Shown one piece after another: positions 124-29,023 of a DNA stretch of 39,189 nt; the stretch's first letter is position 1; each line of letters opens with the position of its first letter. The stretch lies in IMG/VR virus record IMGVR_UViG_2703718862_000013. One strand, given 5' to 3'. The notes beneath the pieces were generated by a model, which was given only the letters and a program-made list of their open reading frames with translations, did not search any database and was not told where the DNA came from. A program made the translations under genes and the position numbers. This DNA comes from a virus. Lineage: Duplodnaviria > Heunggongvirae > Uroviricota > Caudoviricetes.

Positions 124-861
124 TCATTCACTCTCTTTCAAACCAGTTTTAACTGTTTGTGGTTTTGGGTAAGGCTGGACTTTGAATAGCTTTGTGTTGA
201 GGCGTTTTCTGGCCCTCTTGTTCAGAAACCGGATGTAACGAAACTGTCGGAACTTATGCACACTGGCTCTGTCGATATTAGCCCTCAGATGTTCACCTCG
301 TTGTCCGCCTCGTTTAATGGCATTCCTGCAAATCTCGTGATACCACTCGCCATCAAGTTCATAGAATATTGTTTCATGGCTGCCTACATAATCAAAATTG
401 CTTGCCTGATACACGACACCAAGACAGCCACAACGCTCATCTGCAAACGACTGAACCCACTGTACCTGCGGATAAAGCTGCCTGATTAGCTTGAGCGCGT
501 AACTGATTGCCCTTGATTCGGAATTTCTCGGCATACAGTCATGCATCCATAGCCGGTTCAGCTCCATATATTCTCGGTTCTGCGTACCCGTTACGACGCG
601 TGCACCACTGTTTGGGTTAAGGGCGTAACCCCATTGCATTACGCCAACAAGTTCCCGTTCTGAAAATATGCCCAGATGAAGGTAGGAGTTATTTACGAAA
701 CGGTGGCTGTAATGTTTATTGACGATAACCAGTCTGGCCAGCCAGCAACTTATTGTCTCAACCCGCAACTCACGGGAACCATAACCAACGATATTGTCGT
801 TATAGCGAATAAGTTCAGGCGTGCTGATGATACGGGATGTGACTTGCTTTCTGTTCCCCAC
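124..861 (-). CDS. mom: Mom DNA-modification protein (adenine modification, anti-restriction)
   Basis: Recalled Mu Mom signature [11 protein letters not shown]...[26 protein letters not shown]...[11 protein letters not shown]...RGGQRG...LRAN; last gene before phage end. Confidence 0.85.
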
Positions 862-1015
862 GACAGGATTTCCTTGTGTATGTGGGGTGCTCTGTGGCGC
901 TCGGAGATGTGATTTGATTGAGGGTTTTACAGCGCGGACATTTTACTTCCAGATAACTGAAACTGGCCCGTGCCAGTAGCTTATTGCAGTGTCGGCACCG
1001 TATGTTTCGATACAT
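815..1015 (-). CDS. com: Com zinc-finger translational activator of mom (ORF open to 1060; start at MYRNIRC likely)
   Basis: [10 protein letters not shown]...VKCPRCK matches Mu Com C4 zinc finger; overlaps mom 5' end as in Mu. Confidence 0.8.
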
Positions 1016-1039
1016 GGCCGCATAACCTCCTGCTTTGTT

Positions 1040-1210
1040 GTTGATGCCTTTCTCATGCAATCGATCGACAAAAACGATCGATTCGATTTGTTTAATTGAT
1101 ACAACAAATAGATTGAAAAGTCATCAACAATGATTCAGGGCGGTGATTATTTACTTAAAGAAAACGAAGAGTTAGGCGGTGAAAACGATCATAAAATGAT
1201 CATTTTATTG
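1040..1210 (-). promoter_or_regulatory. Candidate mom operon regulatory region with two palindromic GATC pairs
   Basis: CGATCG-acaaaaa-CGATCG (1051-1069) and GATCAT-aaa-ATGATC (1187-1201) upstream of com. Confidence 0.35.
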
Positions 1211-1275
1211 ACTTTTTATCCAGTGAAGGTAGGATCGCGCGTATATGTAGTATGTTTCAAATCAACAGGATACTA

Positions 1276-1314
1276 CATAAAAGGGAAACCCAGCATAGCT
1301 GGAACTATGCTGGG
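1276..1314 (-). terminator. Intrinsic terminator, minus strand, insulating the com-mom unit
   Basis: Perfect 10-bp stem CCCAGCATAG/CTATGCTGGG (1289-1314), 6-nt loop, U-rich tract after it on minus strand. Confidence 0.5.
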
Positions 1315-1501
1315 CCGATTTAGACAAGTTTGCATCAATGCTTTACTTCGGGACTACATAAATGGCGACTCAGATAGCGCGAACTATTCTGGGTCAATCT
1401 GTAAAAAACTGCATCAATGCTTCACTCTGAGCTCGTGGTGTATCCTATGATATTCCCCGGCCTCCTGTAAAGCAGAGATGCATCTGTTCAGGCAGGAGAA
1501 A

Positions 1502-1708
1502 ATGGATAAACTGACCACCGACCAAAAGTTACAGGCTGCGCGAATTGCAGCTGATATCACAATTGCAGCAATGACATCCACCAGTTGTGTCTTTACCTCT
1601 TTTCATACAGCTGGTGATTCATCAGCTATGCAATTATGGAACGCGTGCTTTTCTGATGTAATTCGGGCAATCAGCGAGTCAACTGACCCTCACGAACCGC
1701 AAAAATAG
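1502..1708 (+). CDS. Hypothetical small protein (68 aa from MDKLTT)
   Basis: AGGAGA Shine-Dalgarno before ATG at 1502; converges on 1671..1871. Confidence 0.3.
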   Translation: MDKLTTDQKLQAARIAADITIAAMTSTSCVFTSFHTAGDSSAMQLWNACFSDVIRAISESTDPHEPQK

Positions 1709-5236: not shown

Positions 5237-5386
5237 AACCTCGGTTTACGGGAAACGGTAAATAAGGCGGCGAATGCCCTGCCATCGGACGGCACCGCTG
5301 CGGCAGCAAACAGACTCGCCACCCCAGTAAATATTAATGGTGTTCCTTTCGACGGGACGCGGGATATAAACATTACGTCAGGAATG
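5237..5386. repeat. Inverted repeat, left arm (duplicate of tail-fibre constant region)
   Basis: About 150 bp, ~92% identical to reverse complement of 6521-6671; same reading frame NLGLRETVNKAA..NRLATPVNINGVPFDGT.DINITSGM. Confidence 0.85.
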
Positions 5387-28600: not shown

Positions 28601-29023
28601 TCAGAAAAGTGGCGGTTGCGTTCTTGCCAGATGCAGACGGCGCTGTTCGCGTATGACGGTATAAATCTGGGTTTCTGACATCCTGTAATGGCGGCGCAGG
28701 GTTTCAATTTTTTCGCCCTGGCTCCAGCGGGAAAAAATCTCATTATTGCGCAGTTCGGTGAAAAGGGATTCACCGACCGGGAGATAATAACCACGCCCGC
28801 CCATGTACCCGGCCTGTGCGGCCGCAACTTTACGGGCAAGCATTCCTGCCTGAGCAGGTTCAATCCCCTGACGGTGCAGTTCAGCACTGATCACATCAAC
28901 CAGGTCCCGCAGCGTGCCGGGCCAGTTCTTTTTCAGCTCATCATCAGGAATGTCATCCAGACGGTCAATCAGCGCGTGCAGCTGTTCGCTGTCACCAAAC
29001 ATGCTCATCTGTGTTTCAGCCAT
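28601..29023 (-). CDS. Mor/C-family transcriptional activator
   Basis: C-terminal HTH region ...YYLP.G.SL...LRN.EIF..W.....I..L...Y..S...IY.VIR..RR...QPPLF resembles recalled Mu Mor; Mor versus C not distinguishable here. Confidence 0.75.
   Translation of the reverse strand: MAETQMSMFGDSEQLHALIDRLDDIPDDELKKNWPGTLRDLVDVISAELHRQGIEPAQAGMLARKVAAAQAGYMGGRGYYLPVGESLFTELRNNEIFSRWSQGEKIETLRRHYRMSETQIYTVIREQRRLHLARTQPPLF

Follow-up and report, generated by a model that had tools for sequence, protein, structure and literature searches.

We analyzed a 39,189-bp stretch of viral DNA (IMG/VR record IMGVR_UViG_2703718862_000013; hereafter, the window), which is a complete Mu-like, Sp18-type prophage of Escherichia coli/Shiga toxin-producing E. 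coli (STEC), focusing on a palindromic pair of GATC sites (pair 1) located upstream of its com–mom operon. Over its first 2.5 kb, the window matches E. coli STEC2018-607 with 100% identity; in that strain the prophage sits in bcsA, and from position 5269 onward the 2 sequences diverge. The plus strand of the window reads inward from the Mu "right end," and com and mom are therefore encoded on the minus strand, overlapping as they do in Mu; their assignment in an earlier reading of this DNA (the original prediction) was correct. Mom is toxic and helps the phage to evade restriction, and the layered control of mom in Mu, in which the involvement of Dam and OxyR has long been known, is a textbook case. 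The window Mom is 79% identical to Mu Mom and the proteins of its relatives match the Pfam family Mom (PF25680), whereas the CxxC...CxxC protein Com aligns with Mu Com (MKSIRCKNCNKLL). We consider pair 1 to be probably (at roughly 0.6) the promoter-proximal half of a Dam-sensitive OxyR operator controlling the com–mom promoter. The genes and candidate elements that bear on this reading are the following:

124–861, minus strand: mom, a regulated DNA-modification gene of 245 aa with a GTG start (open reading frame [ORF] list; RefSeq "protein mom").
815–1015, minus strand: com, a 66-aa zinc-ribbon translational activator with a 47-nt overlap with mom.
1016–1125, minus strand: conserved com–mom control block; homology between window-type and M3-type prophages stops at ~1110–1125.
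1026–1030, minus strand: Shine–Dalgarno sequence GGAGG of com, invariant across all alleles.
1041–1046, minus strand: candidate −10 hexamer, CATCAA in the window, TATCAT in FORC069-type, and TATCAA in M3-type alleles.
1059–1083, no strand assigned: pair 1 palindrome AATCGATCG-N7-CGATCGATT, a perfect 25-bp inverted repeat with 9-bp arms, containing the candidate promoter-proximal OxyR half-site.
1064–1078, no strand assigned: candidate proximal OxyR half-site ATCGTTTTTGTCGAT, matching the consensus ATAGnTnnnAnCTAT at 7/10 positions.
1067–1072, minus strand: candidate −35 hexamer TTGTCG, inside the palindrome, with a 19-bp spacer.
1095–1109, no strand assigned: candidate distal OxyR half-site ATTTGTTGTATCAAT, 7/10 matches, 16 nt from the proximal half-site.
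28601–29023, strand not stated: C-like late activator gene, its product sharing 40% identity with Mu C and 28% with Mor.

A nonrandom GATC palindrome in a conserved control block

The CGATCG-N7-CGATCG core of pair 1 had been recognized in the original prediction but placed at 1051–1069, 11 nt off its actual position at 1062–1080. The 2 Dam sites, GATC at 1063–1066 and 1076–1079, are separated by 13 bp, start to start. Only 0.035 GATC-containing inverted repeats with 9-bp arms are expected per shuffled window, the 23-bp pattern ATCGATCG-N7-CGATCGAT has no second occurrence in the window at a tolerance of up to 3 mismatches, and a blastn-short search of the whole window returned no second copy of the control region. 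GATC density was considered as an argument for function and dropped: the window contains 142 GATC sites against 157 expected, with no excess, and 5 GATCs within 178 bp arise somewhere in ~40% of Markov shuffles, so that the clustering is not significant. We also observed that positions 1–1062 (mom, com, and the phage end) contain no GATC at all, whereas ~3.8 would be expected at the mean density of the window, and that a 14-bp inverted repeat with 13/14 matching positions (TTGTTGATGACTTT/AAAGGCATCAACAA, 1038–1051 and 1117–1130) brackets the whole com control block, its downstream arm overlapping the candidate −10 hexamer.

In form, pair 1 reads G[ATCG-N7-CGAT]C, with the 2 GATCs flanking and overlapping one OxyR dimer half-site. 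Pairs of half-sites were scored against the OxyR consensus over 10 positions each, with spacings of N7, N16, and N17 considered compatible with an OxyR tetramer. The candidate operator ATTTGTTGTATCAAT-N16-ATCGTTTTTGTCGAT (1109–1064) scores 7 + 7, that is, 14/20; no other match in the 39 kb reaches this score with N16 spacing. Across the same 39 kb there are 13 sites of at least 13/20, 7 of which fall within 1064–1131, as do both sites of at least 14/20. The candidate distal half-site overlaps an inverted repeat, ATTTGTT-N10-AACAAAT (1086–1109), and the core ATCAATTAAA, which is shared with Mu. The Mu mom operator ATAGAAAACGACGAT-N16-ATCGGTAATACAGAT equals that of the window in both spacing and score, whereas by the same consensus scoring agn43 reaches 8 + 8 and gtr reaches 8 + 10 and 10 + 8, all at N17.

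To place pair 1 in an evolutionary context, we sampled Mom-encoding loci, 80 from viral contigs and 49 from one genome per species, and examined the sequence preceding com. In all 33 window-type loci, pair 1 and the adjoining block as far as ~1110 do not vary, unlike the 16 nt between pair 1 and the Shine–Dalgarno sequence. The 13-bp GATC pair, either alone or with an extra GATC 18 to 19 bp upstream in the style of Mu, is found in window-type, Mu-type, and at least 8 other diverged lineages. Among host-labelled genomes, it precedes com in 8 of the 15 Enterobacterales Mom loci (7 identified by script and L117 by eye); the remaining 7 comprise 5 loci from Yersinia and Serratia for which the scan detected no com, 1 truncated match from Sodalis, and L102, which has an 18-bp pair only. 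No 13-bp pair was found before com in any of the 29 loci from Pseudomonas, Oceanospirillales, Desulfovibrio, alphaproteobacteria, and others, most of whose hosts are not known to have Dam. In a set of 32 distinct 13-bp-pair sequences, including agn43 and 2 gtr pairs, the bases between the GATCs vary, yet the OxyR-diagnostic T6 is kept in 28, A10 is kept in 21 (with G in 10), and the flanks conform to the consensus AT(C/T)GATCG-N7-CGATC(G/A)AT.

Of 5426 complete E. coli genomes, 233 carry the right-end region of the window type, with many O157:H7 and other STEC strains among them, and the window-type allele is dominant, with at least 99% identity in 207 of 235 records; 3 of the genome matches (H29–H31) share just positions 1–1110 with the window. 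A search of a phage collection for distant DNA relatives of the control region recovered just 2 Stx phages, each carrying an inserted Mu-like phage. In one locus (L095:1150–1500) and in E. coli DETEC-S792, an identical control region, pair 1 included, and com are followed by a gene for a 350-aa C5 DNA cytosine methyltransferase (PF00145) instead of mom; this gene starts at the same GTG and Com-target region as mom. Since the methyltransferase takes the place of mom in these loci, com and the operator look like a portable cassette driving different DNA-modification genes.

Control regions of other kinds were encountered in the same survey. No com was found in the scan upstream of the mom homologue in 6 loci (L106–L110 and L129, from Yersinia, Serratia, and one source labelled Sphingomonas), which share a conserved GC-rich element, gatgggcgccccggaaagttgccgctctccggggc...gtcaacagtcacgagcacacc, that could represent a different, RNA-based control. 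The nonenteric com loci L103, L105, L079, and L082 (Neptunomonas, Endobugula, and viral contigs) have no 13-bp GATC pair; L103 and L079 have an 18-bp GATC pair further upstream, and all 4 have a palindrome in common, ccacagtga..cactgtgaacca, located some 80 nt before com, which may be a different operator or an RNA structure. Elsewhere in the prophage, identity to NZ_CP075697 breaks at position 5269, inside the tail-fibre/invertase region adjoining a recombinase gene, with downstream coordinates offset by 36 bp, consistent with another state or allele of an invertible G-like segment.

Pair 1 compared with known Dam/OxyR operators

The com–mom operon of the window is homologous to that of Mu, with the same overlap of the 2 genes and at the equivalent end of a Mu-like genome, and a homologue of the Mu late activator C is likewise encoded by the window phage. 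Alignment of the Mu control region, ATCAATTAAAtCGATCGgtaatacaGATCGATTAT, with that of the window, ATCAATTAAAcaaatcgaatCGATCGtttttgtCGATCGATTgc, identifies pair 1 as the counterpart of GATC sites II and III of Mu, which share its 13-bp spacing and read cGATCGgtaatacaGATCGATTAT; the flanks common to both include the ATCAATTAAA core and GATCGATT. The original prediction had proposed Mu-like regulation by Dam and OxyR for the entire region, with a site arrangement different from that of Mu. The difference in arrangement is real: Mu has 3 GATCs with spacings of 18 and 13, all of which Bölker and Kahmann are said to have found protected by OxyR in 1989, whereas the window has the 13-bp pair only and reads GTATCA at the position of site I. 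The regulatory reading is supported for pair 1 by its homology to Mu sites II–III, its agn43/gtr form, and its invariance, but is not supported for the second GATC pair (pair 2) and the hairpin farther upstream, which lie outside the conserved block.

The Mu GATCs are located at −87, −69, and −56 (with the start placed at L001:1247), upstream of a C box centred at −43.5, where Mu C binds a dyad overlapping the −35 region (PMC2582627). In the window, no TTAT-N6-ATAACC C box, T6 run, or TAAGAT −10 hexamer is present between pair 1 and com. The distance from the last GATC to the com ATG is only 48 nt, compared to 74 nt in Mu, leaving no room for the Mu layout; the window pair would be expected to overlap or adjoin the core promoter. 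Since both the 3-GATC layout and the C box were looked for and neither was found, the window element does not reproduce the Pmom architecture of Mu.

The gtr operon of P22 provides a closer parallel in geometry. Its paired GATCs are 13 bp apart, Dam methylation abolishes OxyR binding to them, and OxyR in turn shields the sites from Dam (PMC2909390). The G[ATCG-N7-CGAT]C unit of the window is identical in form to gtr half-sites A and C, a GATC-free second half-site lies 16 to 17 nt upstream, and the window GATCs, at ~−45/−32 relative to the start implied by the candidate −10 hexamer, lie one base from gtr GATC3/GATC4 at −46/−33 (PMC2909390). However, gtr has 4 GATCs in 2 pairs, whereas the window has a single GATC pair within reach of an OxyR tetramer; without a third GATC-bearing half-site that could support an alternative ON configuration, a heritable ON/OFF switch is not predicted from the window sequence.

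The closest match in sequence is to agn43 (flu) of E. coli K-12, with 22 of 26 positions identical between the window ATCGATCGTTTTTGTCGATCGATTGC and agn43 ATCGATCGTTTATATCGATCGATAAG. In agn43, OxyR is a repressor displaced by methylation, and we propose the same for the window. The agn43 operator differs in having 3 GATCs (spacings 19 and 13) positioned at and downstream of the transcription start, and agn43 is a host gene with neither a phage activator nor translational control. The Salmonella opvAB locus resembles the operator proposed for the window in that GATC-bearing OxyR half-sites control a surface or DNA-related function, and differs in having 4 OxyR sites and 4 GATCs with alternative methylation patterns. 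Based on sequence, geometry, and homology, pair 1 is best filed as a putative methylation-sensitive OxyR operator. Our search of the literature on mom control in Sp18-type prophages found no paper on the subject.

Promoter layout and competing explanations

The candidate operator lies 48 to 94 nt upstream of the com ATG, within the conserved control block, where 2 candidate promoters can be drawn. In the preferred one, the −35 hexamer is TTGTCG within the palindrome and the −10 hexamer lies at 1041–1046, placing the com–mom start probably near 1034 and the GATCs at ~−45 and −32. The FORC069-type version, TTGTCG-19-TATCAT, scores 9.2, a value reached by no more than 35 positions on both strands of the window, and relatives that carry the pair alone have good −10 hexamers 7 to 9 nt downstream of it (TATACT in L034 and L035, TATAGT in L036, and TAGATT in L097 from Edwardsiella). 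The 19-bp spacer is similar to the suboptimal spacer described for Mu Pmom (PMC3378877). The alleles differ at 1041–1048, reading aaaGGCATCAA in the dominant O157/window type, aaaGATATCAT in the FORC069 type, and aaaGATATCAA in the M3 type, and the CATCAA allele may be a promoter-down variant of a toxic operon. Scoring against sigma-70 cannot settle the position of the promoter and also fails to rank the known Mu Pmom; a score at background level is consistent with a promoter that depends on an activator as well as with one kept deliberately weak in front of a toxic operon.

Under this layout, we propose the following mechanism. As long as the GATCs are unmethylated, an OxyR tetramer would occupy the half-sites at 1064–1078 and 1095–1109 and cover the −35 region of the weak promoter (TTGTCG at 1067–1072, 19-bp spacer, −10 at 1041–1046, start at ~1034), and this occupancy would silence the toxic mom operon. 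Once Dam had fully methylated the 2 GATCs, OxyR could no longer bind and RNA polymerase would gain access to the promoter, probably with the aid of the C-like late activator, after which Com would allow translation of mom. Repression by OxyR and its relief by methylation are predicted under either promoter layout.

Several points weigh against this reading. In the window allele, no sigma-70-like promoter rises above background (the best one scores 4.7), the candidate −10 hexamer CATCAA lacks the key T at −7, and no ATAACC-like C box was found on the minus strand at 1016–1130. The distal half-site contains no GATC and matches the consensus at just 7/10 positions, and its exact position is uncertain because several registers score alike in this AT-rich stretch. 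The promoter could also lie upstream of pair 1, a placement that we rate less likely. Related loci share ancestry, and their counts consequently overstate the number of independent events. Finally, binding by OxyR, sensitivity to methylation, the transcription start, and the involvement of C are all inferred from sequence. With regard to C, the 4 late promoters of Mu all share ATAAyCmC, followed by the −10 hexamer 20 nt later, whereas no motif common to the com region and the upstream regions of the lysis and protease genes was detected in the window; Mu-like ATAACCCC words, tried as candidate C boxes, are scattered and uninformative.

The most credible of the alternatives, although we regard it as doubtful, keeps OxyR and Dam but adopts a layout like that of agn43: the promoter would be located upstream of pair 1 (ATGACT at 1119–1124, 17-bp spacer, TATCAA at 1096–1101, start at ~1089), the operator would fall in the early transcribed region, where OxyR would block the polymerase from downstream, and the palindrome would form a hairpin in the mRNA leader. 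ATGAC(T/A)-17-TATCAA is indeed kept in both window-type and M3-type flanks though homology decays just beyond it, all 3 agn43 GATCs are positioned at the annotated start of IsrC/agn43 or beyond it, and the stretch from pair 1 to the Shine–Dalgarno sequence is the most variable one, as a leader would be. The upstream promoter scores 3.7 to 5.0, but this is a background value (678 window positions score at least 4), the upstream TATCAA lacks the −7 T, and the good −10 hexamers of the pair-only relatives, as well as the TATCAT of the FORC069 type, are downstream of the pair. It is unlikely that pair 1 serves mainly as a site for a phage protein, either the C-like late activator or another dimeric regulator, with the GATCs incidental or merely modulating. 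A perfect palindrome with 9-bp arms over the presumed −35 region would suit such a protein, given that the Mu C dyad also overlaps the −35 (PMC2582627) and that no other C box was found; a site different from that of Mu is conceivable because the C homologue differs from Mu C at 3 of 7 predicted recognition residues (SETQIYT versus SQPQIYQ). Nevertheless, the palindrome is unique in the prophage, with nothing similar before the lysis, head, or tail operons, the G[ATCG-N7-CGAT]C unit is present in agn43 and gtr, which have no C protein, and the restriction of the pair to Enterobacterales fits recognition by a host factor.

That both GATC pairs and the upstream terminator make up one extended mom control region, for example with OxyR bridging the pairs as with gtr A/B/C, appears quite improbable. 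The 2 pairs do recall the 4-GATC layout of gtr and opvAB, all 3 elements are individually nonrandom, and a terminator ahead of a toxic operon would be sensible insulation. However, the centres of the pairs are ~123 bp apart, compared to 64 bp in gtr, and the 11-bp spacing of pair 2 (ATCA-N5-TGAT) does not have the form of an OxyR half-site. Furthermore, 13 of 33 relatives have pair 1, com, and mom intact yet lack pair 2 and the hairpin, the M3-type sequence is unrelated at this location, and an alternative hairpin allele has no U tract. We consider it least probable of all, and very much so, that the palindrome has no regulatory role and represents inherited sequence, restriction-site-like words (PvuI CGATCG and ClaI ATCGAT), or a target of SeqA only. 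Such an explanation would be in line with the nonsignificant regional GATC density and with a dominant allele devoid of a recognizable promoter, whose operon could be decaying, but it is at odds with the 0.035 such repeats expected per window, with the strict conservation of the GATCs and their 13-bp spacing across lineages with diverged flanks, with the conservation of T6 and A10 between the GATCs, and with the absence of the pair outside Enterobacterales.

The adjacent variable cassette and the meaning of the proposed operator

Upstream of the conserved block, the window carries pair 2, the hairpin, and 2 promoter-like sites:

1187–1208, no strand assigned: pair 2, GATC at 1187 and 1198, 11 bp apart, with GATCATaaaATGATC at 1187–1201 and the palindrome ATAAAATGATCATTTTAT.
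1208–1235, plus strand: promoter-like site TTGACT-16-TAGGAT, invariant in 5 aligned cassette alleles, which differ by very few substitutions.
1277–1314, minus strand: terminator-like hairpin CCCAGCATAG-ttccag-CTATGCTGGG with the tail TTTCCCTTTTAT.
1442–1471, minus strand: putative promoter-like site TTTACA-18-TAGGAT.

Pair 2, GATCAT-aaa-ATGATC, lies at 1187–1201 exactly as originally predicted, but its 6-bp-arm inverted repeat alone is at chance level (1.25 expected), whereas the perfect 18-bp palindrome ATAAAATGATCATTTTAT (1191–1208) that overlaps it, and which had been missed, is the window's sole perfect palindrome of that length (0.17 expected); a search for copies of the palindrome elsewhere, for example in the immunity region, yielded none above chance. 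The 18-bp palindrome abuts the −35 hexamer of the plus-strand TTGACT-16-TAGGAT site, and a fifth GATC, at 1233, which the original prediction did not mention, overlaps its −10 hexamer. In the most economical reading, pair 2 would thus relate to this plus-strand promoter-like element.

The predicted 10-bp-stem hairpin with a minus-strand tail is also present (arms at 1289–1298 and 1305–1314); the window has perfect 10-bp-arm hairpins at just 3 places, where 0.17 would be expected. The fold that comprises this hairpin and an adjacent one has a minimum free energy of ~−31 kcal/mol. In the window, a stem of 10 to 13 bp is followed by UUUCCCUUUUAU; a second allele, GTCCAGATAG-ctgtaa-CTATCTGGAC, keeps the 10-bp stem but has the tail CUCCCUUUAU without a U tract. 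Because both alleles hold the 10-bp stem through changes on both sides, the structure is selected; given that the second allele lacks the U tract, terminator function is no more than plausible for the window allele. The hairpin may end minus-strand transcripts ahead of com–mom. A further strong hairpin, with 11-bp arms (CAAACCGACAG...CTGTCGGTTTG, 1913–1940), is found just past a DUF826 gene and was marked as a terminator-like structure on either strand; read on the minus strand, it precedes com–mom, in series with the hairpin at 1289–1314.

The segment with pair 2 and the hairpin is absent from 13 of the 33 loci that carry pair 1 and from M3-type prophages, and by sequence comparison it is an adjacent variable cassette, dispensable and very probably not part of the proposed com–mom switch. 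A short RNA could start at the minus-strand TTTACA-18-TAGGAT site and end at the hairpin, measuring ~159 nt in the window and ~80 nt in the O157 allele. The 2 promoter-like sites (1208–1235, plus; 1442–1471, minus) are convergent and flank 2 conserved hairpins, at 1245–1278 and 1289–1314, which hints at an antisense RNA covering the 5′ leader of a small plus-strand gene. Searches for known RNA families of the Rfam type in 800–2600 gave chance matches only, with E-values above 1. Compared to the O157 and FORC069 alleles, the window has an insertion of ~79 bp at 1311–1389, which resembles an imperfect duplication of the segment with GAAGT(A/G)AAGCATTGATGCA and widens the gap from the minus-strand promoter-like site to the hairpin.

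A plus-strand ORF overlying pair 2 and the hairpin (window 1130–1508; L005:2630–3094) is a frameshifted RefSeq pseudogene in the window and encodes 154 aa in O157; its homologues occur in E. coli prophages only, as alleles of 135, 137, 153, and 154 aa. The ORF is probably spurious, because its C-terminal halves switch reading frame between alleles, and coding constraint therefore does not explain pair 2 or the hairpin. Short ORFs with strong ribosome-binding sites seem to be the genuine plus-strand genes, likely including window 1502–1708 (68 aa) and an ORF of ~56 aa with a CPAC...CPAC zinc ribbon in the O157-type cassette. A Pfam search of the flanking small ORFs returned nothing beyond a sub-threshold zinc-ribbon hint.

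There is an outside chance that the com–mom promoter is a gtr-like epigenetic device independent of the late activator, in which competition between OxyR and Dam at the single −35-overlapping pair would set heritable or stochastic OFF and ON lysogens. If so, subpopulations of lysogens would express Mom, or the C5 cytosine methyltransferase swapped in behind com and the control region, and the prophage would impose phase-variable hypermodification on the host chromosome and phage DNA in ~4% of sequenced E. coli.

Control of mom by Dam and OxyR in Mu and the placement of a GATC pair in an OxyR half-site in gtr were already known, and the Dam-sensitive OxyR operator proposed here is a variant of a known mechanism. 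In this variant, prophages of the window type would retain the Dam/OxyR element but have it placed over the core promoter instead of ahead of an activator site, nearer to the gtr design. The 2 GATCs of pair 1, at 1063 and 1076, are concrete sites to inspect in PacBio or Nanopore reads, from which many of the complete STEC assemblies were presumably built. More generally, the single 25-bp unit AT(C/T)GATCG-N7-CGATC(G/A)AT common to mom, agn43, and gtr provides a simple signature for finding genes controlled by OxyR and Dam.

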